Below, in pieces: positions 7,085 through 58,578 of a stretch of 64,000 bases of DNA (its first letter is position 1; every line of letters starts with the position of its first letter). A program made the translations under genes and the position numbers. Source of the stretch: Patescibacteria group bacterium (GTDB lineage: Bacteria; Patescibacteriota; Patescibacteriia; Magasanikbacterales; GWA2-37-8); contig JBAZNA010000001.1 in the NCBI GenBank assembly GCA_041649475.1, forward strand, positions 197,022-261,021, given 5' to 3'. The notes beneath the pieces are model-generated. The model saw nothing but the letters and a program-made list of their open reading frames with translations. It had not been told where the DNA came from and ran no database searches.

Positions 7085-9532
7085 ATGCTTATCTCTTTTA
7101 ACTGGTTAAAAAAATACGTCAAGTTACCTGATTCGGTTAGTGCCGAGGATGTAGCTGAAAAATTAAAGCAAAGCACGGTGGAAATTGAAAAAGTGGCCAG
7201 TCGCGCCAAGGATTTGGAAAATATTGTAGTTGGAAAAGTTGTGTCTTGCGATAAACATCCGAATGCCGATAAATTACAGGTTTGCAAAGTCAGCGTCGGC
7301 AATGAAGAAGTGGAAGTTGTTTGCGGAGGCAGTAATGTGAAAGAAGGAATGCTGGTGGCGCTGGCAAAAGTTGGCGCCAAAGTGCGCTGGCATGGAGCCG
7401 GGGAGTTGGTTGAGCTTGCGCCAACAGAGATTCGCGGCGTGAAATCATTCGGGATGATTTGCGCGTCAACTGAAATCGGTCTGGCTGACATGTTTCCTTT
7501 AAAAAGCGAAAAAGAAATTTTGGATTTGAGCGGCGTGAAAGCAAAGCCGGGCGCGCCTTTAAACAAAGCGTTGGGTTTGGATGATGCGGTTTTAGAAATT
7601 GATAATAAATCTTTGAGCAACCGGCCCGATCTGTGGGGGCATTACGGCCTGGCGCGTGAAGTGGCCGCGTTATATAAAAAGGATTTAAAAGCATACGAGG
7701 TCAAGAAAATAAAATCGGGCAAGGGCCTGAAAGTGAAAGTAGAAATTGAAGATAAAAAGTTGTGTCCGCGGTATATGGCCGTGGCCGTCTCGGGAATTAA
7801 GGTGAAAGAGTCCCCGGAGTGGCTAAAGAAAAGTTTGTTAGCAGTGGGCCTGCGACCAATAAACAACATCGTTGATATCACCAATTATGTGATGATGGAT
7901 TTGGGTCAGCCCATGCATGCGTTTGATGCCAAGGTTTTATCTGGCGATAAGAAACAGGCCGCGATTGTGGTGCGGCGTGCGAAAGACGGCGAAGAATTCG
8001 TTACTTTGGATGAACAGAAAAGAAAATTGGATTCGTCAATGCTTATGATTGCCAATCCGGAAAAATCGTTGGCCATTGCCGGCGTAATGGGCGGGATGGA
8101 AAGCGGAATTAATGCCGGTACTGATACTATAATTTTTGAATCCGCCAATTTTGATGCTTCATCAATAAGAAAAACGTCTACTAAATTGGGTTTGCGCACT
8201 GATTCATCGGCTCGTTTTGAAAAAAGTTTGGATCCGAATTTGTGCGTGTCGGCTTTAAGCAAAGCCGTCCAATTGGCGCTGGAATTAAATCCCGGCGCCG
8301 GTGTAGGCGGTAATATTGCCGATGAAGCAAATTTTCATCTTAGCACGGGTCCAATAGGATTTGGCCTGGAATATTTGAAGAAAATTGCCGGAGTGGAAAT
8401 TTCCAAAAAAGAAGCGGTAAGCATTTTAGAACGATTGGGTTTTGCGGTCACCGGTAAAGGCGATGAAATGAAAGTAAAAATTCCCAGCTGGCGCGCCACC
8501 AAAGACATCTCTCTTCCCGAGGACTTGGTTGAAGAAATTGTGCGTATTTATGGCTATGAAAATATATTGTCTGCGATGCCGACGTTTCCGATAAACCCGC
8601 CGGAAGAAAACAAAGTGCGTAAACTGGAAAGACAAATTAGGGATTTGCTGGTAAAAGAAATGTCATATACGGATATGTATAATTATTCTTTTGTCAGTCC
8701 GCAGATGATTGCCAAAATGAATGATGATGTTAAAAAATATATTGAACTTGATAATCCAATTTCGCAGGAACGGCCGTATGTGCGCCGGCATTTAATCACT
8801 AACCTGTTGGAAAATATTTTAAAAAATATTGATAATCATCCCACTTTGCGTTTATTTGAAATCGGTAAAACCTTTATAAGTGAAAAGCCGGGGCAAAGAA
8901 CAATGGCCAACAATGACGATCTGCTTCCGCGCCAGGACACCTGGCTGACAAGTGTGTTTGTGGAAAAGAAAAATGCGGCGCCGTTTTGGCAGGCACGCCG
9001 GGTAGTGGAAAATATTCTGGGCGATTTGGGGCAAAATTTTGAAGTGAAGGTGCCGAAAGAAATTTATCCGTGGCAGCATAAAGCGCGCGTGGCCAGAGTA
9101 ATGGTTGCCGGAGAAGATGTGGGTTCGGTTTATGAACTTAATCCGGCCGCGGGAGCCAACTTAGGTTTAGAGTGGAGCGTGGGCGTGGCGGCGTTAAACA
9201 TTGATAAGCTGGCAATGCTGCCTGTGTCTGACAAAAAATATAAACCACTGTCAGAATATCCGGCCATAGAACGGGATTTGGCGATTTTGGTGAAAAAAGA
9301 AGTTTCACACGGTGAAATTATTTCAGCCCTGGCGCACACTGATCCGATTTTAGCATCTGTGGATCTGTTTGACGTCTATGAAGGAGAGAACATCGGCGCC
9401 GGTTACAAAAGCATGGCTTATCATTTTGTCTATCGCGACCTTAAGCGAACCCTTACGGCCGGAGAGGTTGAAAAAGTGCACAGTAAAATTTTAAAAATTC
9501 TTCAGGAAAAATTTAAAGCGAGCGTGAGATAG
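7085..9532 (+). CDS. pheT: phenylalanine--tRNA ligase beta subunit
   Basis: 815 aa with an N-terminal tRNA-binding domain (MLISFNWLKKYV, CDKHPNADKLQVC), B3/B4 and B5 regions and a C-terminal FDVY anticodon-binding domain. Confidence 0.9.
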   Translation: MLISFNWLKKYVKLPDSVSAEDVAEKLKQSTVEIEKVASRAKDLENIVVGKVVSCDKHPNADKLQVCKVSVGNEEVEVVCGGSNVKEGMLVALAKVGAKVRWHGAGELVELAPTEIRGVKSFGMICASTEIGLADMFPLKSEKEILDLSGVKAKPGAPLNKALGLDDAVLEIDNKSLSNRPDLWGHYGLAREVAALYKKDLKAYEVKKIKSGKGLKVKVEIEDKKLCPRYMAVAVSGIKVKESPEWLKKSLLAVGLRPINNIVDITNYVMMDLGQPMHAFDAKVLSGDKKQAAIVVRRAKDGEEFVTLDEQKRKLDSSMLMIANPEKSLAIAGVMGGMESGINAGTDTIIFESANFDASSIRKTSTKLGLRTDSSARFEKSLDPNLCVSALSKAVQLALELNPGAGVGGNIADEANFHLSTGPIGFGLEYLKKIAGVEISKKEAVSILERLGFAVTGKGDEMKVKIPSWRATKDISLPEDLVEEIVRIYGYENILSAMPTFPINPPEENKVRKLERQIRDLLVKEMSYTDMYNYSFVSPQMIAKMNDDVKKYIELDNPISQERPYVRRHLITNLLENILKNIDNHPTLRLFEIGKTFISEKPGQRTMANNDDLLPRQDTWLTSVFVEKKNAAPFWQARRVVENILGDLGQNFEVKVPKEIYPWQHKARVARVMVAGEDVGSVYELNPAAGANLGLEWSVGVAALNIDKLAMLPVSDKKYKPLSEYPAIERDLAILVKKEVSHGEIISALAHTDPILASVDLFDVYEGENIGAGYKSMAYHFVYRDLKRTLTAGEVEKVHSKILKILQEKFKASVR

Positions 9533-9607
9533 TAAAAAATTTGTTGCATCTTTAAATTTGTGCTATAATATCTTCAGATTATTTTTATTTTTAATTTAAG
9601 GAGCGGT

Positions 9608-9994
9608 ATGATAGAAACTTCCAAAGATATTTTATACCTGGTCATCGCGTTTTGTGTTTTGTGGCTGACGGTTTTTCTCTGCTGGACGTTTTTCTACGTG
9701 GTGAAAATTTTAAAGAACACCAACCGGGTGGTTGAAGAATTTCGCTCGCGCCTGCAACTGCTAACTGAAACCATAAATTATGTGCGCGGCAAGGTGGAAA
9801 GCATTCATGCTTTGATTGGTTTAGCCGGCGGCAATGTAGCCAATGCCGTAAAAAATATCGTGAGCAAGAAAGCCAAAGAATGGGTTGATAGCGGTTCTAA
9901 AAAAATGAATACTTCAGCTAAAGACGCGGTGGACTTTGCGGTAAAAGCGACTGCAAAGGGCATGAGCAAGGTAGCAAAGAAGATTAGAAGATAA
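9608..9994 (+). CDS. hypothetical small membrane protein
   Basis: 128 aa with an N-terminal transmembrane helix and a Lys-rich C-terminus. It is preceded by an extended -10 (tgcTATAAT) and an AAGGAG ribosome-binding site, and followed by a terminator hairpin. Confidence 0.5.
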   Translation: MIETSKDILYLVIAFCVLWLTVFLCWTFFYVVKILKNTNRVVEEFRSRLQLLTETINYVRGKVESIHALIGLAGGNVANAVKNIVSKKAKEWVDSGSKKMNTSAKDAVDFAVKATAKGMSKVAKKIRR

Positions 9995-10149: not shown

Positions 10150-10497
10150 ATGGGAATGCGCGCGAAGGACTGGGAGGCGGCCCAGGCCGTTTTCTTGAAA
10201 GAGGCCGGTGCCGACCCTGACCCCGACGATTCGTGGACCGTAGTTCGGTCGCCGAGTTTGCAGGAGCTTCTGCTGGCAAAGGAGCAGGAGTTCCCGGTTG
10301 AGCTCGAGCTCTCCGACGGCCGCAAGATGACCGTGTTCGTCGAGGATATCAAGGACCCCGACGCGCACGGCGAAGTGGAGGTGTACGTAATGTACGTCGC
10401 CAACGGCAACCGGCGCCGGCGGTACCTGCACTTCACCCCCGACGTCTACGAGCCCAGGGTCAACGTCTACCCCGAGCCCAAGGAATCCGTGGGCTGA
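10150..10497 (+). CDS. hypothetical protein, compositionally foreign GC-rich cassette A (115 aa)
   Basis: ATG preceded by a GAAGGAGAAAAAAG ribosome-binding site. Codon third positions are strongly G/C-biased, and the first 60 nt count about 63% GC against about 28-40% in neighbouring genes. Its own promoter is upstream and an intrinsic terminator is downstream. No recognisable domain. Confidence 0.6.
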   Translation: MGMRAKDWEAAQAVFLKEAGADPDPDDSWTVVRSPSLQELLLAKEQEFPVELELSDGRKMTVFVEDIKDPDAHGEVEVYVMYVANGNRRRRYLHFTPDVYEPRVNVYPEPKESVG

Positions 10498-10587: not shown

Positions 10588-13500
10588 ATGCCCGACTTTG
10601 TTCACCTCCATGTCCACAGCCATTATTCGCTTTTAGATGGCCTGCCAAAAATTGACGAGCTAGTTAAGCATGCCAAAAGTTTGGGCATGACTGCCCTTGC
10701 CCTCACCGATCATGGTAATATGTATGGCGCCATTGAGTTTTATGAGCGGTGTCAGAAAGAGGGAATAAAACCGATCATCGGCATGGAGGCATACTTGGCT
10801 CCGGGCAGTCGTTTTGATAAAAATCAAAATGACAAGTATTATCATCTGGTGTTGTTGGCTTTGGATTATACCGGTTATAGAAATTTGATGAAGCTGGCTT
10901 CGCTGGCTCATCTGGAGGGGTTCTATTACAAACCCCGTGTTGATAAAGAACTTCTAAAACAATATCATGAAGGTTTGGTTGCTTCATCTGCCTGTTTTGG
11001 CGGCGAGATTCCTTGGATTTTGCGCAAAGAAGATAATTTTGAGAAAGCCAAAAAAGTGGCGTTGGAATACGAAGAAATTTTTGGCAAAGGAAATTTTTAT
11101 CTGGAACTGCAGGACTTGCCGGGTTTGGAAGGTCAGATGGAGATGAATACAAAATTAATTAAGCTTTCCCAAGATACTGGCGTCCCGCTTATTGTCACCC
11201 GTGACGTGCATTATTTGAAACCGGAGGACGCCGAAGCCCAGGATATTTTAACCTGCATCCGCGACGGCCGGACTTTGGATGAACCCAATCGCCAGACCAT
11301 GAATGCGGTTGATTGTTCAATGGCTAGCGTCAAAGAAATCGCCGGCCGCTTTAAACATATTCCTGAAGCATTGGAGAACACGGTTAAGATTGCCGAAAGA
11401 GCGAATCTGGTTTTAGAACTTAATAAATGGCATTTTCCGCCTCTTGAGCTTCCGGTCGGGCAGACCGCCGACAGTTATTTGCGCGAGCAGGTTTATGAAA
11501 GATTGCCGAAGCTGTTGCAGATAACCGAGGAGGTGAAAAAAAGAGTTGACTATGAGTTGGAAATTATCGCCAAAAAAGGTTATTCTCCGTATTTTTTAAC
11601 AGTTGCCGATTATGTGCAGTATGCGCGCGACCACGGCATTGCCGAAACGACCAGGGGCTCGGCTGCTGGTTCAATCGTTTCTTACGCTATAGGAATCGTC
11701 ACTGTTAATCCGCTGTATTTCAAATTGCCGTTTGAAAGATTTTTAAATCCATTCCGTCCCAGCCCGCCGGATATTGACGCGGACTTCGCCGACGACCGCC
11801 GCGACGACATGATTGCTTATGTCACGCAAAAATATGGTGCGGACAAAGTGGCGCAGATTATTACCTTCGGAACGATGATGGCGCGCGGAGCGGTGCGCGA
11901 TGTGGGCCGAGCGCTGGGCTATACCTATTCTTTTTGCGATCAGATTTCAAAAATGATTCCTTTTGGCGCGCAGGGTTTTCACATGAATATTGCCAAAGCC
12001 ATGGAGCTGGAGCCGGATTTAAAAAAATTATACGATCAAAATCCGCAAGCCCACCGTTTATTGGATTTGGCGCAAAAAGTGGAGGGCTGCGCCCGACACA
12101 CTTCCATACACGCGGCCGGAGTGGTGATTTCACCGACGCCGCTTACGGATTTTACTCCGGTTCAGCGCGAAACCGGCGGTGAGAGAATTACCACTCAATA
12201 TGAAATGCACGCGGTGGAGGCGGCTGGAGTTTTGAAAATGGACTTTTTGGGGATCCGCAATTTATCTATTTTGGGTCATGCCGTGGAAATTATAGAAAAA
12301 ACAACCGGCCAGAAAATTGATATCTACAAATTGCCCTGGGATGACAAAAAAACCTATGAAATGCTGGCGCGCGGTGAAACTATCGGTGTGTTCCAGCTTT
12401 CCGGATCTGGCATGACCAGATATTTGAAAGAATTAAAGCCGGCCAGCATCTTTGATATTATGGCCATGGTGGCACTGTTTCGCCCCGGGCCAATGGAATC
12501 AATTCCCGAATATATAAAAAGAAAAAATCATCCGGAACTGATTGAATATCTTGATCCGCGCATGGAAAATTATCTTGATCAGTCCCTGGGCTTGATTGTT
12601 TATCAGGACGACGTTTTGCTTACGGCTATAAATTTGGCCGGATACAATTGGGAGGAAGCGGATAAATTCAGAAAAGCGATGGGCAAGAAAATTCCGGAAG
12701 AAATGGCCAAGCAGAAAGAGAAATTTTTTAAGGGCTGCCGTGAATTCGGGCATTTGTCCGAAGCAAAAATCAACACCCTGTGGGAACGCATTGAGCCGTT
12801 TGCCGCTTATGGTTTTAACAAGGCCCATGCCTGCAGTTATGGAGTTGTGGCCTATCAGACCGCCTATCTGAAAGCTAATTTTCCGGTGCAGTATATGACC
12901 GCGATTTTGATTGCGGAAAGCGGCGACATTGATAAAGTGCCGGAAATTATTCATGAGTGCGAGAGAATCGGCATAAAGGTCTTACCGCCCGATGTTAATG
13001 AAAGTTTTAAAAATTTCGCCATGATTTCGCCGGAAGACGGATCCGAGCCGCACATTAGGTTCGGTTTAAACGGCATAAAAAATCTGGGCGAGCATATTGC
13101 CGAAGTGATTTACCGCGAACGCAAAGAACATGGCACGTATAAAGACCTGCAGGATTTGCTCACGCGTGTAAATGATAAGGATTTAAACAAAAAGTCCCTG
13201 GAAAGTTTGGCTAAATGTGGCGCGCTTGATTGTTTTGGCCATGACCGGGGATTGCTTTTGGCCAACACGGACAACCTTTTGGGTTTTGTCAGGCAGATGC
13301 ATGAGAAAACCCAATCAAACCAGAATTCGCTTTTTTCAGGCACAACGATTGATTTGTCCGCCAAAGTTCAGCTTAATCCGGCGCCCCTGGCCGATGAAGC
13401 CGACAAGCTGATTTGGGAAAAAGAATTGCTGGGACTCTTCGTCACTTCCCATCCATTTAAGTATTTTGAAAAAATTATGAACGGCGTGCTGACACCGATT

Positions 13501-18073: not shown

Positions 18074-18400
18074 TCACAGGACCACTTCTTCGTAGTAGTC
18101 GGCCCGCTCGTGGCTAGCGTAGGGGCTTGATTTGGCATCCTTGAGCGCAGCTGCGGCGAACGGTTCGTCTATGGTGACCTCGGCAACGTTCTCGCACTTG
18201 GCGATCAACAGCTGACAACCATCACAGCCGAATCCGGTCACGGTTGCCAGAACCAGCGCCTCCTTGATCTTCGGTACCCGGCCCTCTTTGCGGATGGCTT
18301 CGGCCACATCGGCCGCGTTTTCTCCACCGCAGTCGGTCCAGAACTTGAAAACAACCTCATCACCCTTGCGCACACTAACGAGTCCGGTTTTTCCGTGCAT
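18074..18400 (-). CDS. hypothetical protein, GC-rich cassette C (108 aa, contains a GCDGC Cys pair)
   Basis: The ATG is preceded by a perfect AAGGAGG ribosome-binding site that overlaps the TAA stop of the upstream FAD oxidoreductase gene. The coding sequence is strongly GC-rich. It has no promoter of its own and ends at the terminator at 18021-18052. Confidence 0.55.
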   Translation of the reverse strand: MHGKTGLVSVRKGDEVVFKFWTDCGGENAADVAEAIRKEGRVPKIKEALVLATVTGFGCDGCQLLIAKCENVAEVTIDEPFAAAALKDAKSSPYASHERADYYEEVVL

Positions 18401-25928: not shown

Positions 25929-26282
25929 TTAGGTGTCAACCGTCTCCACCGGAGGGTTGGGCACTGTTGGCCCCCAGAGAGGGACGAATTCCGTGCTCTG
26001 GAAGTTCTTGCGACACAACTCTTCAAGACCAGGGGTATCGCCATCGTAGATGACCCGGGAGGCCGTAATCACGGCCCGATCCTGCTTGGACCCGAACCCC
26101 ATCTGGGCGGCCAAGTTGTAGGCGTTCCTAGCCGAAGGGGCTTCACCGTTTTTTTGCACTTCCGCGCGAATTGCGTCAGCAAAACGCTTGGTGAGATTGC
26201 CGCCGCGGCCAACCACAACTTTCATCAAAACCACGTCGCCTCGGAAAACGATGACCATTCCCGGAACAGCAGTCGTGGACAT
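25929..26282 (-). CDS. hypothetical protein, GC-rich cassette D (117 aa)
   Basis: The ATG is preceded by AAGGAGG-attctcc. The coding sequence is GC-rich. It has its own consensus promoter and terminator. No recognisable domain. Confidence 0.55.
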   Translation of the reverse strand: MSTTAVPGMVIVFRGDVVLMKVVVGRGGNLTKRFADAIRAEVQKNGEAPSARNAYNLAAQMGFGSKQDRAVITASRVIYDGDTPGLEELCRKNFQSTEFVPLWGPTVPNPPVETVDT

Positions 26283-29580: not shown

Positions 29581-29922
29581 CTAGCCGGCGGCGGAAGCGG
29601 CGATGGGGGCGATCTTGGGCTGGATGTCGATCACGGGGATCGGCTCGGGCAGACCGTCGAAGCGCTGGCGGAGCCAGTCGATCTCGGGCTCCGAGGCCTC
29701 GCCCATGAAGATCTCGATGTAGAACGTCCCCCTGATGAGGCCCTCGTACTTCAGCTTGAAGCCGGGGATCTCGTCGTCGAAGTCGGCCTTGTGCGGCCTG
29801 TTGACGTACCTGTTGAAGTCGTTGAGCGAGCAGTACCTGACGCTGCCGTCCACGAACTGGATCCGTACGGCCCTTGTCTGCAAGGTCGTGTCCGGGAACG
29901 TCATCAGCTTCTGGATCGGCAT
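29581..29922 (-). CDS. hypothetical protein, GC-rich cassette E (113 aa from MPIQKL)
   Basis: Start chosen at the methionine preceded by AAGGAGagggag. The ORF-track ORF extends to 29994 with an Arg-rich low-complexity N-terminus that is probably untranslated leader. The coding sequence is GC-rich, and both its 5' leader (about 105 nt) and its 3' UTR (about 90 nt) are long and GC-rich. Confidence 0.5.
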   Translation of the reverse strand: MPIQKLMTFPDTTLQTRAVRIQFVDGSVRYCSLNDFNRYVNRPHKADFDDEIPGFKLKYEGLIRGTFYIEIFMGEASEPEIDWLRQRFDGLPEPIPVIDIQPKIAPIAASAAG

Positions 29923-41855: not shown

Positions 41856-41884
41856 TTGACCAATTGTCTTTTTTATGCTAAAGT
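41856..41884 (+). promoter_or_regulatory. sigma70-like promoter TTGACC -17- TAAAGT for cassette F
   Basis: ttgacc aattgtcttttttatgc taaagt, followed by the leader hairpin cctgccagagaaaggcagg and an AAGGAGG ribosome-binding site. Confidence 0.5.
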
Positions 41885-41931
41885 ATGTGGTTCCTGCCAG
41901 AGAAAGGCAGGTCAGAAAGGAGGCCTCTCGG

Positions 41932-42312
41932 ATGACACGGGTCATGAGTTTGATGGCTTTCTACGCGACTTATCGTCTCTTAAAGGTCGCGTACCGTGCG
42001 ACCGAGAGACAGCTTAGGCTATTCTTCGTCCCCAAGCCGGGGTGCGAGGGGGCCTACGAGGTGGATGAGCAAATCTTCGCCAAGGTTCGGACGCTCATCG
42101 TCAATTCCAGGTCGTTTCAGACCGAAATCTACCCGCTGAACGCCAGTGACGTGGGGGAAGATTTCCGCCTTGGCGACCAGGATTTCACCGGCTCGGTGAT
42201 GGTCTGGCTGAAGGAAGTAGATCCTTTAGACGCACTGTTTACCGACAGAATCAAGGAGGTTGTGTTCGGAGAGGAGAAAGAGTATCGCTTTCAGTGCGGT
42301 TCCCGCAACTAG
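41932..42312 (+). CDS. hypothetical protein, GC-rich cassette F (126 aa from MTRVMSL)
   Basis: Start chosen at the methionine 8 nt after the AAGGAGG ribosome-binding site. The ORF-track start at 41875 lies inside the leader. The coding sequence is GC-rich, and a GC hairpin follows the stop codon. Confidence 0.55.
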   Translation: MTRVMSLMAFYATYRLLKVAYRATERQLRLFFVPKPGCEGAYEVDEQIFAKVRTLIVNSRSFQTEIYPLNASDVGEDFRLGDQDFTGSVMVWLKEVDPLDALFTDRIKEVVFGEEKEYRFQCGSRN

Positions 42313-54261: not shown

Positions 54262-55680
54262 TTATAGGGAGCCGGTTTTTCTGATGACAACAAAAGGTGT
54301 TTTAATTAGAATTATGAGATCTAAAAATAAACTCCAGTTTTCTATATAAAATGTGTCCAGCTTTATTTCTTCTTCATAGCTTAAATTGCTGCGTCCGGAA
54401 ATTTGCGCCAAGCCGGTGATACCGGGTTTGATTTCTAAAACTATTTTATGCTTTCTTTCGTAATTTTCAACCTCCCGGGGCTGGTGCGGACGCGGGCCGA
54501 CCAAACTCATTTCACCTTTGAACACATTAAAGAATTGTGGCAATTCGTCTATGCTCCAGCGGCGGATAAACCGGCCAAACGGAGTGACACGCGGGTCATT
54601 TTTGATTTTGTAAATCGGACCGTTTTTTATGCTTTGTTTTTTGATCAGTTCCTGTTCTTTGGCCAAAGCCACGGTGGAAGCTTTTTTGCCAAACTGAATG
54701 CCGTTTGAATCTTTTTGATACATTGATCGAAATTTTAGCGTGAAGAATTTTTTATCGGCTTTGCCGACTCTTTCATTTTTGTAAATCACCGGCCGGCCGG
54801 TTTCAATTAAAATTATTAAAGAGATAATTAAATAAATTGGAGAGAGGATAATTATAAAAAATATACTGCCGATAATATCTATTAGTCGTTTGAAAATTCT
54901 GCCCCAACCCGTCAGCCGCGTTAAGCGCAGTTCAATAATCGGAATGCCGGTGATGGTGGAAACGGCCATGTTGGTGGAAATGGTTGAAAACAAATCAGCT
55001 GAATATTTGAAAGCGATGTGATGTTCGTTGGCAAAATCAATTGCTTCCAACGCCTCTTTTTCATTAGCTTTCGGATCCGTAAAAATTATTTCGTCCGGTT
55101 TTAGTTTTAAAATTGTTGGTTCGCTGGCGACATCAAAACCATCGTAGGTGGCCACCACTTTATAGCCAAATGACTTGTTGAGTAGTGATTGCTTGATTTC
55201 CTGGCCGATAATTTCTTTGCCGATAATAATTGTGCGGCGTAGTCCTACGCCGGCTTTGTGTAGCCAGATTTTTAAACCGGCGGTGAGGATGCGCCCCAGT
55301 GACACAAAGATAATGGCTAAAATCCAACCGACCAAAACCAAAAATCTGGAATCAAATTTTTGCAAGGTGAAAAAAACATAAATGGTGATGCCGGCAAAAC
55401 CGGTGGCGGTGGCCATGACCACTCGGGTGAGATCGCGGGCGAGCTTGCGGTTGGGGTTGGTGCTATATAACCCGGATAAAGCAAAAATAATAATCCAGGC
55501 CGCGGCTGTAAGCAAGACCAATGGCCAGTATCTTTGCCAGGAAAGATTAAACAAAACCGGCCGGATGGCTTTGGCAAAATCAGCAAAGCGAAGCGTGTAG
55601 GCAGTAAAGCCGGCCAGTATCAGCAGGGCAAAGTCAAGAGGAAGTTGGAGTAAGGTAAAAAAGAGTTCAAATTTTTTCAT
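54262..55680 (-). CDS. polyprenyl-phosphate glycosyl-1-phosphate transferase (bacterial sugar transferase, WbaP/CpsE-like)
   Basis: True start placed at MKKFELFF (55680). It has N-terminal transmembrane helices and a C-terminal sugar-transferase domain (PQFFNVFKGEMSLVGPRP). The ORF-track extension to 56025 runs into cassette G and is rejected. Confidence 0.8.
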   Translation of the reverse strand: MKKFELFFTLLQLPLDFALLILAGFTAYTLRFADFAKAIRPVLFNLSWQRYWPLVLLTAAAWIIIFALSGLYSTNPNRKLARDLTRVVMATATGFAGITIYVFFTLQKFDSRFLVLVGWILAIIFVSLGRILTAGLKIWLHKAGVGLRRTIIIGKEIIGQEIKQSLLNKSFGYKVVATYDGFDVASEPTILKLKPDEIIFTDPKANEKEALEAIDFANEHHIAFKYSADLFSTISTNMAVSTITGIPIIELRLTRLTGWGRIFKRLIDIIGSIFFIIILSPIYLIISLIILIETGRPVIYKNERVGKADKKFFTLKFRSMYQKDSNGIQFGKKASTVALAKEQELIKKQSIKNGPIYKIKNDPRVTPFGRFIRRWSIDELPQFFNVFKGEMSLVGPRPHQPREVENYERKHKIVLEIKPGITGLAQISGRSNLSYEEEIKLDTFYIENWSLFLDLIILIKTPFVVIRKTGSL

Positions 55681-55734
55681 AGTTGTGGGCGCGGTGCGCT
55701 TAGGTTGAGTATATTTTACGCCAACTGCCCAACA

Positions 55735-55763
55735 TTGACAAGAGAGCTGTTTTAGTGTTAATT
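55735..55763 (+). promoter_or_regulatory. sigma70-like promoter TTGACA -17- TTAATT for cassette G
   Basis: ttgaca agagagctgttttagtg ttaatt, followed by a leader of about 70 nt and an AAGGAG ribosome-binding site 7 nt before the ATG. Confidence 0.45.
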
Positions 55764-55838
55764 TAACGTGCTGTGGCGAAACCATTCTGGCCAAGCCCGA
55801 CAGCGTCTGTAAACACGGTCGTATAAAGGAGACAAAAC

Positions 55839-56504
55839 ATGGCGACCGCAAAACAGATTCCGTTTTTGATGGGAAGGTTGGTGGAGCATCAGTTTTACTT
55901 CTGTGCTTTGTCCACCGCAAGCGCCACGTGGGCGAGCCAAAACCCGAAAGACGCCATTGCCTTGTGCGTGGCGGCGATCGAGAATCGCCAAAAGGAGCGT
56001 CAGTCCGACCCGGCGCCTTCGCCACTCCTCACCTTGGTCGGTGCCGTCGTGATCTGGCTGGCCGTGAGGTTCGTTGCCAGTGAACACCTGGTGAAGAATA
56101 CCGAGAAGAACGCGCCGGTGAAGATTTCCTACATCTTCGATAAGGTCACCGTGTGGTTCCAGGGCAAGATCGAGGAGCGGGTCGAGGGCGAGATGGCTCT
56201 GTGCTGCCATACCCTGAACTCCGACTCGGACGATAACCTCATCATCAACCAGCTCGGCGGCGAGACCAAGGCCGAGACCGCCCTTGCCGAGGTCTTTGCC
56301 TGCTTGGAGAAGCAACCCAACGGCGAGGATGGTGCGCTACTCACTAACGGCCACGCGAACATCTTCTATGTTCGCAACACCGAAGGTGTGTTGTGCGTGA
56401 TCCAAGTGATCTGGCGCGGTGACGGTTGGACCTTCTACACCCGTTCGGTCGGTTCTCTGGACACATGTACCGAGGGCCGCCGGGTGTTCTCCCGCGCCGC
56501 ATAG
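55839..56504 (+). CDS. hypothetical protein, GC-rich cassette G (221 aa)
   Basis: GC-rich coding sequence with its own promoter and ribosome-binding site, followed by an intrinsic terminator. No recognisable domain. There is one hydrophobic segment (LLTLVGAVVIWLAV). Confidence 0.55.
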   Translation: MATAKQIPFLMGRLVEHQFYFCALSTASATWASQNPKDAIALCVAAIENRQKERQSDPAPSPLLTLVGAVVIWLAVRFVASEHLVKNTEKNAPVKISYIFDKVTVWFQGKIEERVEGEMALCCHTLNSDSDDNLIINQLGGETKAETALAEVFACLEKQPNGEDGALLTNGHANIFYVRNTEGVLCVIQVIWRGDGWTFYTRSVGSLDTCTEGRRVFSRAA

Positions 56505-56523
56505 TTTGTTCCTTCCTTCCAAG

Positions 56524-56558
56524 CGCCCCGCCTGTCAGATGGTGGGGCATTTTTTTAT
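56524..56558 (+). terminator. intrinsic terminator gccccgcctgtcagatggtggggc + T8
   Basis: 5-bp GC stem, a long loop and catttttttat. Confidence 0.6.
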
Positions 56559-56565
56559 CCAAATC

Positions 56566-56594
56566 TTGACAAAACCCCTCATTTGTGCTATAGT
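56566..56594 (+). promoter_or_regulatory. consensus-like promoter TTGACA -17- TATAGT for rnpB
   Basis: ttgaca aaacccctcatttgtgc tatagt, lying about 7 nt upstream of the RNase P RNA 5' end. Confidence 0.6.
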
Positions 56595-56600
56595 TAACCC

Positions 56601-56994
56601 ATTCATAGCGGATGATCGAGCCGACTTAGTCGGCTAGGAAAGTCCGAACACCCAAGATGGCAGTGGGTAACGCCCACCGCTACGGTGGCAACGCCGTGGT
56701 TGGGAAAGTGGCACAGAGACAATTCTAACCCCGACAAGCTCGGGGTAAAAGGTGAAAAGTGTATGGGGGATTTGGTTCTCGAGACCAAAGCTACTATACT
56801 CGGCTGATAGCAATATCAGTTCGTGCTAAACCCTGCCTGGTGCAAGAGCAGCGTTTCGCGGCGCAAAACCGCGGTTCGAAAAGTTCGCTCGCTAGAACGC
56901 GTTAGCAATAACGCGTCCAGATAAATGATCGTCACCTCGCCCCATTTTTAAACAAAATGGTGCGGAGCACAAAATTCGGCTTATAGCTATGAAT
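56601..56994 (+). ncRNA. rnpB: RNase P RNA (bacterial type A)
   Basis: P1 pairing ttcatagc/gctatgaa. P2 gagccga...tcggctt and a P3 hairpin ccgacttagtcgg. P4 5' strand AGGAAAGTCCG and 3' strand ACAAAATTCGGCTTA. Conserved GGGTAACGCC, GTGGCACAGAGACAAT and GGTAAAAGGTGAAAAGTG blocks match the E. coli M1 RNA pattern. Confidence 0.8.
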
Positions 56995-56995
56995 A

Positions 56996-57026
56996 AAAAA
57001 GACGACCCGCAAGGGCCGTCTTTTAA
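56996..57026. terminator. bidirectional intrinsic terminator (gacgacccgcaagggccgtc) flanked by A6 and T4
   Basis: aaaaaagacgacccgcaagggccgtctttt. It ends rnpB (+) and the convergent 57040-58578 gene (-). Confidence 0.65.
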
Positions 57027-57039
57027 TATATCCGCGGAT

Positions 57040-58578
57040 TTATGATGTTCCCGGCGCCATCGTTGGTTGCTGTTGCATCATCGGCTGTTGTGGTTGTTGT
57101 GGCATGTATTGTTGCATTCCCTGCGGCATTTGTACTTGTTTAAATTGTTGCGGCCCTTGTTCCCAAGGCATTATTTCTCCTTCTTGTCCGGTCAGTTCAT
57201 TAACCTTATTGCCAAAATCCTGTCTTAAATTTTCTAAGTCATCCAGGGCTGATGTAATCGTATCAACATCATAATTTTTACTCGCAATCAAATCTTTTAT
57301 TTCCTGTCCTTTTACTTTTATTTCATCCAGAATTGGTACAAGTTCGGATGTGTCTATCTTCTTTTTCTTTAATTGATTGATTGTTTGTTGCGCTTGATTG
57401 ACACTTTGTTTAAAGGTGGAATTGAAACTGCCCAGGTTACCCATCATCATTATAATCTGGTCATTCTGCATTATGTCATCCATTTGGCCGAAGAAATCAT
57501 TTTCCACGGTATCAAACGCGCCCTGTGAATCATCGGTGGCCATTTTGCTTACCGCGTCCGCTTTAACCGCTTTGAGTTTATTAACCGCCTCTTCAAATGC
57601 GTTGTAAACACTTTGGATGTCTATGCCCTTCTTAACTAATTTATCAGTGATTTGTTTGGCGCGTTTGAGCTCACGGGTAAGCATGGTGAGCTGTTTGTCC
57701 ATCTGTTTTAAGGTTTGCGGCCAGCGAGCCAGCATCTCCAGTGTCTGACGGTCTTGGTTTAAATTTTCCATTGCTTCAGACATTGAATTGAAATCAATAT
57801 CATTCAACTGATCGGCGGTGGTCGCGTTTTTTATACTGTTAATAATATTCCTTAGGTTAAGAATATTTTCTTGGGTGTTGGTCGGAATGGATATTTTTTG
57901 TTTTTGGAATTTGGCCACTTGTTTTTCAAACATATTAAGCTGCGATTCCATGCCTTTGATATTTCGTTTCATGTCCTGCAATCTTTGGTTTGCCTGAAAA
58001 ACATCCTGCCTATATTGGTCTAAGGATTGTGACAGATCCTGCATCTCGCCCATATCAACATTTTGCATTTCTTCCATGGTGCTCACATTGGAAGCGGCCG
58101 CGACCAAATCTTTTAATTTAACCAAATTTTGTTTGATATCATCCGGTACGGTGATTCCGCTTTTCTCCGATTGGGCTATCATCCGGTCGTATTCTTTAAT
58201 GGATCGTTGCAGTTGTTTTATACTATTTTTTATTTGTTTAAGCTGTTGTTCCGGACTTGGACCATAATTCGGTTGTTGCGGCGGCTGTTGTGGGGGTTGT
58301 GGTTGTGGCTGTGGTTGTGGCTGTGGTTCAGGACCCGGCTGTTGCGGGCCAGGGTTGGGCTCCGGAGATGGTTGAGGTGGAGTCGGGGGAGTTGGTTCGG
58401 GGGGAGCCGGAGCAATGACTTGTTGCTCTTCCGCTGAAGTATTGTTGGTGCCTAGCGTGCTTAAAAAGTTTTTTAATATTTGCGGAAGTTCTATATAAAA
58501 AGCTTTGGCTGGCATGGCAAATGAAAAAGTCACGGCCATGGCCACGGTTAGAATAGAAATGTTTATTATTTTTTTCAT
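57040..58578 (-). CDS. hypothetical secreted protein with a Pro/Gln-rich low-complexity region and coiled coils
   Basis: Signal peptide, then a (PQ)n/PEP-rich region, a long coiled-coil body and a Q/P/M-rich C-terminus, 512 aa. Confidence 0.5.
   Translation of the reverse strand: MKKIINISILTVAMAVTFSFAMPAKAFYIELPQILKNFLSTLGTNNTSAEEQQVIAPAPPEPTPPTPPQPSPEPNPGPQQPGPEPQPQPQPQPQPPQQPPQQPNYGPSPEQQLKQIKNSIKQLQRSIKEYDRMIAQSEKSGITVPDDIKQNLVKLKDLVAAASNVSTMEEMQNVDMGEMQDLSQSLDQYRQDVFQANQRLQDMKRNIKGMESQLNMFEKQVAKFQKQKISIPTNTQENILNLRNIINSIKNATTADQLNDIDFNSMSEAMENLNQDRQTLEMLARWPQTLKQMDKQLTMLTRELKRAKQITDKLVKKGIDIQSVYNAFEEAVNKLKAVKADAVSKMATDDSQGAFDTVENDFFGQMDDIMQNDQIIMMMGNLGSFNSTFKQSVNQAQQTINQLKKKKIDTSELVPILDEIKVKGQEIKDLIASKNYDVDTITSALDDLENLRQDFGNKVNELTGQEGEIMPWEQGPQQFKQVQMPQGMQQYMPQQPQQPMMQQQPTMAPGTS

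Follow-up and report, generated by a model that had tools for sequence, protein, structure and literature searches.

Introduction

The pairing of a variable region (VR) with a template repeat (TR), in which the mismatches between the two copies are biased towards adenines of the TR, is the defining signature of a diversity-generating retroelement (DGR). The variable proteins of Patescibacteria/CPR DGRs are reportedly also treated by Paul et al. 2017 (Nat Microbiol 2:17045). Roux et al. 2021 (PMC8144416) number the Patescibacteria/CPR DGR clade as 'clade 2', and most CPR VRs were left as 'unknown VR' (UVR) classes by Wu et al. 2018 (PMC5758913). DGR finders that need a reverse transcriptase (RT) beside the VR miss stand-alone copies, a limitation stated by Roux et al. 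2021 (PMC8144416). In the Bordetella phage BPP-1, a hairpin that follows the VR is required for retrohoming (Guo et al. 2011, PMC3240598).

Here, we analysed a 221-aa ORF, referred to as cassette G, which lies on a contig of 963,177 bp in a Patescibacteria MAG. The term window is used for the whole stretch of DNA that was analysed, 64 kb in length. The cassette is compared below with the DGR variable proteins of Patescibacteria, and as a whole we consider it probable that it represents a stand-alone, most likely frozen, copy of such a protein.

Organization of the Locus

The features of the locus are listed in Table 1. The promoter, the leader, the RBS and the 221-aa ORF were all found where the first-pass annotation had placed them, as were the intrinsic terminator behind the ORF and the rnpB promoter that follows it. 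The −35 element of the cassette G promoter is perfect, while the −10 element agrees with TATAAT at three of its six positions, and the site is missing from a consensus promoter scan. An extended −10 element, TGTTAATTT, comprising TG (55756-57), one nucleotide and TAATTT at a spacing of 18 nt, may serve as the alternative. The promoter scan also identified a minus-strand promoter-like site for the sugar transferase (55741..55713), which overlaps the cassette G promoter. An Rfam search of the leader and ORF for riboswitches and sRNAs, at E ≤ 1, returned no family match for the leader, and the matches were otherwise at chance level. The stem-loop of the terminator (56525-56548) starts 20 nt past the stop codon. 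Of its 8 base pairs 7 are GC, and T7 comes directly behind it.

The neighbouring genes of the surface-glycan locus, which encode Bac_transf and GT4 proteins, are transcribed divergently from the 221-aa ORF. A 587-aa sugar-transferase ORF reaching to 56025 runs antisense through the cassette. Its N-terminal extension had been called an artefact of ORF finding, and we agree, because the real sugar transferase (PF02397) is 472 aa in length, a length that an independent gene call (L006) also gives. The other GC-rich ORFs of the window (cassettes A-F), considered as candidate paralogues of cassette G or candidate DGR targets, showed no similarity to cassette G and had no Pfam or NCBIfam matches, and no homologue of cassette D was found.

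Table 1. Coordinates of cassette G and the adjoining features, numbered from the first nucleotide of the window.
Feature	Position	Strand	Basis or remark
Cassette G promoter-like site, TTGACA-17-TTAATT	−35 55735-55740; −10 55758-55763	+	Read from the sequence
5' leader, about 70 nt	55764..55838	+	Sequence
RBS, AAGGAG	55826-55831	+	7 nt ahead of the ATG at 55839
221-aa ORF (NCBI MFA5061760.1, WC526_01275, 'hypothetical protein')	55839..56504	+	ORF; homologues
N-terminal region, residues 1-60	55839..56018	+	Helical at low confidence in AF2; alignments
Conserved domain, residues 61-221	56019..56501	+	Candidate divergent C-type-lectin-like fold
Hydrophobic stretch LLTLVGAVVIWLAVRFVAS, residues 63-81	56025..56081	+	KD19; first beta-hairpin of the domain in AF2
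VR-homologous region, residues 184-219, ~37 codons	56388..56495	+	VR/TR pairs of relatives
GTGTTCTCCCG, VR/TR 3' boundary, IMH-like	56484..56494	+	11-mer common to relatives
GC-rich hairpin GCCCCGCC...GGTGGGGC + T7	56525..56556	+	Intrinsic terminator; site of the family post-VR hairpin
rnpB promoter, TTGACA-17-TATAGT	56566-56594	+	11/12 consensus matches, TG upstream
rnpB, RNase P RNA	56600-56999	+	RF00010, 175 bits
Bac_transf priming sugar transferase, 472 aa (outside the element)	54262..55680	-	PF02397, E = 5e-64

Homologues of the 221-aa ORF and Their Association with DGRs

A protein search identified 10 homologues at 41-49% identity, all of them unnamed or annotated as 'hypothetical'. When 1.84 billion cluster representatives, in which the family is clustered at 50% identity, were searched with a family profile, 3,741 matched as family members at E ≤ 1e-3, and at E ≤ 1e-30 the number was 927. 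The 221-aa ORF is judged a real gene because of these 10 homologues and the 3,741 matching cluster representatives. In the alignment of the homologues, the C-terminal ~160 residues are conserved, while the N-terminal region (residues 1-60) is common to only part of the family (P0002, L013-L016). A scan of the GTDB species genomes found 170 relatives, of which 80 loci were fetched; nearly all were from Patescibacteria MAGs, and the family is essentially restricted to these.

The absence of a recognisable domain in the first-pass annotation held with respect to the domain libraries, since the ORF has no Pfam or NCBIfam match. Similarly, there were zero Pfam matches among 72 family members scanned, and the family profile yielded only noise against the PDB sequences. 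However, homology and genomic context place the protein in a family of DGR variable proteins. For five of the seven homologues with available context (P0006, P0011, P0009, P0002 and P0003), bAvd (PF22296) and/or RVT_1 was identified within about 0.3-1.5 kb on the 3' side, and across the 80 fetched loci an RT was present within 5 kb in 33 and an adenine-biased TR in about 38. In these relatives, the TR lies about 350 nt downstream of the gene, alongside bAvd and the reverse transcriptase.

At four loci (L001, L005, L007 and L009), the homologue's final 109-117 nt recur 454-477 nt downstream (start to start), and the mismatches in the core of the repeat sit at adenines of the downstream copy. 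The VR/TR pairs of these four and of 24 further loci map to the codons of the region marked as VR-homologous in Table 1, and mismatches nearly all at TR adenines were observed in the same four and about 34 further loci. At both L020 and L059, for example, the comparison of VR with TR gave 70 matches, 20 mismatches at A and 0 others. The alternative that these are ordinary repeats was tested, and the pairs of the relatives do show the adenine bias. As the VR/TR pairs differ at the adenines of the repeat, the homologues are DGR variable proteins and the repeat is their TR. Separately, at locus L002 a VR and a TR pair cleanly over 138 nt at a distance of 481 nt, and this pair belongs to a second, unrelated target gene.

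The 3' ends of the VRs share further elements. In L005 and L009, VR and TR alike end with the 11-mer GTGTTCTCCCG. A hairpin with a T-run is present 3' of the VR end in family members, both DGR-adjacent and orphan, mostly starting 30-94 nt after the VR end. In cassette G, the VR 3' boundary (56484-56494) and a GC-rich hairpin (56525-56548) are present as target-site elements, and the motif CAATTC is missing. Taken together, its homology indicates that the 221-aa ORF very probably belongs to the family of Patescibacteria DGR variable (target) proteins.

Cassette G is a Stand-Alone Copy

The window was searched for the remaining parts of a DGR. When RT and Avd proteins of relatives (three of each) served as tblastn queries, nothing was found in the window (best E value 0.1). 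An adenine-tolerant scan of both strands of the window for a cognate TR of 56380-56504 found none, and the window held no further member of the family. Nor did any of the other 10 matches of the protein search represent a paralogue on the 963-kb contig. Cassette G is therefore a stand-alone copy, with no TR, Avd or RT in the window and no paralogue on the contig. The spot at which the DGR-served relatives have their TR, Avd and RT is occupied by rnpB.

Such copies are frequent in the family. Of 66 classifiable loci, 39 were DGR-adjacent and 27 were free of DGR parts for at least 2.5 kb; the homologues P0010 and P0007 are orphans too. In two genomes, the VR of an orphan could be matched to a TR beside another family member. 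In Bacterium BMS3Abin15, the VR of orphan L036 is identical at 69 of 80 positions to the TR beside L014, located on another contig; of the mismatches, 10 are at adenines of the TR and 1 is not. In the MAG JBAZPC01, L027 and the TR beside L062 agree at 60 of 80 positions, and the mismatches comprise 18 at adenines and 2 elsewhere. On these mismatch patterns, L036 and L027 are demonstrably trans targets.

Diversification State of the VR

The codons of the VR-homologous region may bear a trace of diversification in the past. At 11 positions where the family TRs carry AAY, cassette G has NNY at 10 (background Y3 0.57, p about 0.02), and this signature suggests that the copy may once have been diversified. 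Codon 189 (CAA) misfits the AAY signature, as it is underivable from AAY through adenine mutagenesis. Furthermore, 5 of the 14 scaffold positions of the VR (I188, F199, T201, L207 and C210) are off the family consensus through non-adenine substitutions, compared with a maximum of 3 such deviations among the 39 DGR-adjacent members. The CAATTC that is conserved past the VR end in the family has become CGCCGC, and the hairpin differs from the one that is strongly conserved in the family. A Logan assembly across the VR was 100% identical over 8,753 bp, but as both assemblies probably derive from the same reads, this is weak with regard to population heterogeneity. Given family membership, we lean towards a cassette G copy that is no longer diversified and would at present be frozen.

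A less likely alternative is that the gene is an active remote target, with codons 184-219 diversified in trans by a DGR at some other site of the 963-kb genome. Targets that do not adjoin their DGR have been documented (PMC5758913), and the orphans L036 and L027 provide two cases in other genomes. However, in both of these proven cases the DGR also had an adjacent target of the same family, whereas the contig of cassette G carries no family paralogue and the window carries no RT, Avd or TR. For only 3 of the 27 sampled orphans did the same assembly also contain a retrieved DGR copy, and the rough base rate was put at about 30%. The NNY codons described above would fit an active target as well, and cassette G retains the VR-end 11-mer, a GC hairpin after the stop codon, an intact ORF and strong expression signals, but the replacement of CAATTC and the divergence of the hairpin from the family consensus count against it. 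With its CAA at codon 189 and five non-adenine changes in the scaffold, the copy also deviates from all the family TRs that were seen. Against this last point, cassette G also deviates at 7 of 37 positions of the non-VR scaffold; because the gene is divergent throughout, a co-diverged TR elsewhere could mirror the deviations of its VR.

The following mechanism is proposed for a frozen cassette G. In the relatives, an error-prone reverse transcriptase and bAvd would copy the TR downstream of the gene, with the template adenines randomised, and the cDNA would be written back over the VR, so that the rewriting diversifies a ligand-binding surface. In cassette G, with TR, Avd and RT missing, the gene would now encode an ordinary, no-longer-hypermutated binding protein. 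It would be transcribed from its own sigma-70-type promoter, and the terminator hairpin may at the same time be the former post-VR structure. The 221-aa protein may have a ligand-binding role, by analogy with Mtd and TvpA.

Base Composition

The GC-rich character that the first-pass annotation attributed to the ORF was evident, with a GC content of 0.59 and a GC3 of 0.78 in a window of 43.5% GC. Cassette G is an extreme outlier among the 40 ORFs of the window that start with ATG and reach 200 aa or more, as the other 39 have GC3 values of 0.28-0.57. The origin from a foreign, GC-rich source that was thereby implied does not follow, as the composition is a property of the family and is not peculiar to the cassette G locus. 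At each of 70 loci, the target gene had a higher GC content than its flanks (mean 0.538 vs. 0.422), and the non-VR part of the target genes had a GC content of 0.515 across the 70 loci, in hosts that range from 33 to 58% GC. In all 25 loci compared, the GC3 of the target outside the VR (0.684) exceeded that of the RT (0.446; Wilcoxon p = 6e-8). At 4-fold sites, the targets had A at 0.107 and C at 0.427, compared with 0.221 and 0.270, respectively, in the RT of the same cassettes. Homology with a known family at native composition had been named in advance as the finding that would speak against the first-pass description; the family is indeed recognisable, but its genes are GC-rich relative to their flanks in 70 of 70 genomes.

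Since the target genes of all 70 loci are GC-richer than their flanks while the RT is AT-rich, the GC-richness is a long-standing trait of the family and no evidence of a recent foreign origin. The GC3 bias could be caused by translational selection for C-ending codons, or could be a footprint, mutational or selective, linked to adenine mutagenesis. We regard it as improbable that the composition of the whole gene is a long-term footprint of DGR activity, or of selection linked to DGRs, extending beyond the VR (for example, through shifting TR/VR boundaries), or that cassette G is actively diversified by a DGR lacking a target beside it. If the footprint explanation were true, GC3-rich islands in AT-rich Patescibacteria genomes would mark genes that are or once were targets of hypermutation, among them cassette G as a fossil. 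The sections on GC content in a survey of DGRs discuss whole cassettes, as evidence for horizontal transfer (PMC5758913). The contrast between GC3-rich, A-poor targets and AT-rich RT genes was not found in the DGR literature checked and provides a cheap, testable marker, although on its own such a marker leaves the knowledge of the DGR mechanism unchanged.

A recently acquired cassette from a GC-rich donor, unrelated to the biology of the host, was rejected as highly improbable: the compositional contrast with the window, the cassette's own promoter and terminator and the several further GC-rich stand-alone ORFs in the window would fit such an import, but the family is essentially confined to Patescibacteria MAGs, is GC-rich in every locus compared across hosts of widely differing GC content, and is accompanied by AT-rich RT genes in the same cassettes.

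Predicted Fold and the Hydrophobic Segment

An AlphaFold2 (AF2) model of the 221-aa protein was built from a 72-sequence alignment and had a mean pLDDT of 86.4, with residues 61-221 above 90. These ~160 residues may adopt a divergent C-type-lectin-like fold. The N-terminus was modelled as helices (residues 7-14, 18-21, 27-34 and 36-53) at a pLDDT of 51-83. A Foldseek search of the model against the PDB and BFVD returned no significant match.

The first-pass annotation had described an internal hydrophobic helix. The hydrophobic stretch exists, with a Kyte-Doolittle 19-residue mean (KD19) of 2.19 at residues 63-81, which is over the usual threshold of 1.6, but a membrane helix is not supported. 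In AF2, the segment comes out as a beta-hairpin (strands at residues 64-74 and 77-79; pLDDT about 95), and the homologous segment in the relatives has a median KD value of only 1.01, compared with 2.15 for residues 62-80 of the 221-aa protein. In tandem relatives, the homologous segment opens each repeat (P0012, with five domains, and P0013, with two). On these three observations a TM protein was rejected, and the stretch is taken as the predicted first beta-hairpin of the domain and not as a conserved TM segment.

The suggestion of an envelope-related function, made from the membrane segment and the position next to the glycan locus, is unsupported because the hydrophobic segment is no conserved TM helix; in addition, on our reading of the sequence, the N-terminus appears to have no evident signal peptide. 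A single-pass membrane protein, or an envelope protein, with a function linked to the adjoining surface-glycan locus is thus very unlikely. The hydropathy above the usual threshold would favour it, but this is not conserved in the relatives and falls within a confidently predicted beta-hairpin inside the fold, at the start of each repeat in the tandem relatives. The Bac_transf and GT4 neighbours, and the location of P0007 (L012) near Bac_transf and epimerase genes, would also be consistent with such a role; however, the 221-aa gene is transcribed divergently from the glycan genes, and the contexts of the relatives are otherwise unrelated. A signal peptide is present in the two-domain relative P0013, whereas CPR DGR targets typically have no TM domains (PMC8144416).

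Comparison with Known Systems

The 221-aa protein has no detectable sequence similarity to TvpA of Treponema denticola (PDB 2y3c). TvpA is a surface lipoprotein with remote paralogous targets, while the 221-aa protein appears to have no signal peptide. Mtd of BPP-1 has a phage as its host, whereas the host of cassette G is a cell. The hairpin of cassette G has a loop of 8 nt compared with the 4-nt GRNA loop in BPP-1, and, unlike the BPP-1 hairpin, it precedes a T-run and is hence also an ordinary terminator. The (GC)14 IMH element of BPP-1 is not recognisable in cassette G.

The likeness to the Patescibacteria/CPR DGR variable proteins is closer, with 41-49% identity and a VR-homologous region in the C-terminal ~110 nt. 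As in other CPR DGR targets, the protein is small, has no recognisable Pfam domain or TM segment, and has its VR at the very C-terminal end, with a hairpin behind it. It differs from these targets in having no TR, Avd or RT in 64 kb and no paralogue on its contig, and from the DGR-adjacent members examined in the greater number of non-adenine substitutions in its VR scaffold.

An anonymous 'hypothetical protein' can in this way be placed within a defined system, that of the Patescibacteria DGR variable proteins. About 3,700 clusters (at 50% identity) have no Pfam or NCBIfam model, although context identifies the family unambiguously. Stand-alone copies of these genes reveal the duplication of targets, their service in trans and possibly their abandonment after loss of the retroelement. 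Cassette G is probably of a kind that is already known: a DGR variable protein, present as a non-adjacent and probably no-longer-diversified copy.

Base composition of the target genes and of other small ORFs

The diversity-generating retroelement (DGR) target genes of the family were richer in GC than their flanks at all 70 loci compared (drawn from L013-L092 and window 55839-56504, the cassette G ORF), and the adjoining reverse transcriptase (RT) genes were AT-rich. The GC3 was 0.684 in the targets versus 0.446 in the RT genes, with A at 0.107 versus 0.221 and C at 0.427 versus 0.270 of the four-fold sites. This contrast could mark the targets of hypermutation by their composition.

Besides cassette G, the window contains five stand-alone small ORFs rich in GC3 (0.67-0.90; Table), with both A3 and T3 depleted, in a genome of 43.5% GC. 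Each has a TTGACA-like -35 element, an AGGAG ribosome-binding site, and a hairpin followed by a T-run. All are annotated as hypothetical (WC526_01050, 01095, 01135, 01160 and 01215), none matched Pfam or NCBIfam, and none showed similarity to cassette G when compared. ORFs B and C are paralogues (38% identity, E 1e-6). No homologue of ORF D was identified among 5.8 billion proteins searched.

Table. Positions of the small GC3-rich ORFs and promoter-like sites in the window, and contigs of the orphan and DGR-adjacent pairs
Feature	Location	Strand	Detail
Small GC3-rich ORF	10150-10497	+
Small GC3-rich ORF B	18074-18400	-
Small GC3-rich ORF C	25929-26282	-
Small GC3-rich ORF D	29584-29922	-	GC3 0.90
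Small GC3-rich ORF	41875-42312	+
Promoter-like TTGTCA-17-TAAAAT	within 55713-55763	-	for sugar transferase
Promoter-like TTGACA-17-TTAATT	within 55713-55763	+	for cassette G ORF
Orphan L036 vs DGR-adjacent L014	BDTH01000055 vs BDTH01000035
Orphan L027 vs DGR-adjacent L062	JBAZPC010000004 vs JBAZPC010000002

Neighbourhood of cassette G

The two promoter-like sites upstream of the cassette G ORF lie back to back and have the TTGACA/TTGTCA core in common. On the other side, the gene for a 512-aa protein (57040-58578, minus strand) has its terminator at 57024-56997, adjoining the 3' end of rnpB in a back-to-back arrangement. The protein has a signal-peptide-like N-terminus, long coiled-coil-like regions and a low-complexity Pro/Gln-rich tract (PQPQPQ), the last forming a local GC island (58226-58475); its Pfam matches were all weak. 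P0007, an orphan family member with no DGR parts nearby, has surroundings of the surface-glycan type (L012, 2019-7218), with Bac_transf, peptidase S8 and epimerase genes, and in this setting it resembles the cassette G ORF. The shared setting may be coincidental.

Hairpin downstream of the variable region

A hairpin, TTGACCCTCGGTCTGCTTCGGCGGATTGGGGGTCAA, followed by a T-run was strongly conserved 3' of the variable region (VR) in many genomes (L021, L025, L026, L028, L030, L032, L033, L038, L042-L044, L049, L052, L070 and others). It lies 15-95 nt past the VR end and comprises a 15-16 bp stem and a 4-nt loop, usually TTCG, with short repeats of the CTTTG/CCTTGG type upstream. It is common to orphan and DGR-adjacent family members. 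The hairpin may serve at once as a terminator and as a structure for DGR target recognition.

Multi-domain relatives and probable targets in trans

P0012 (926 aa) carries five CLec-like domains in tandem, and P0013 (379 aa) carries two behind a signal-peptide-like N-terminal sequence; certain family members are thus probably secreted and multivalent.

One groundwater contig (L002) encodes a DGR with two distinct targets (coordinates 10994-11596 and 8988-9817), with a nucleotidyltransferase/HepT-like toxin-antitoxin pair directly upstream. P0011 represents the family among the two, and the second target is an unrelated gene of 200 aa with its VR at the 3' end. The best match of the template repeat (TR) was to the VR of this unrelated gene, over 138 nt, with all core mismatches at A.

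In two pairs (Table), the TR of a DGR-adjacent copy was matched by an orphan family member located on a different contig within one assembly, and the mismatches between orphan VR and TR were nearly all at TR adenines, which points to the existence of trans (non-adjacent) DGR targets in Patescibacteria.
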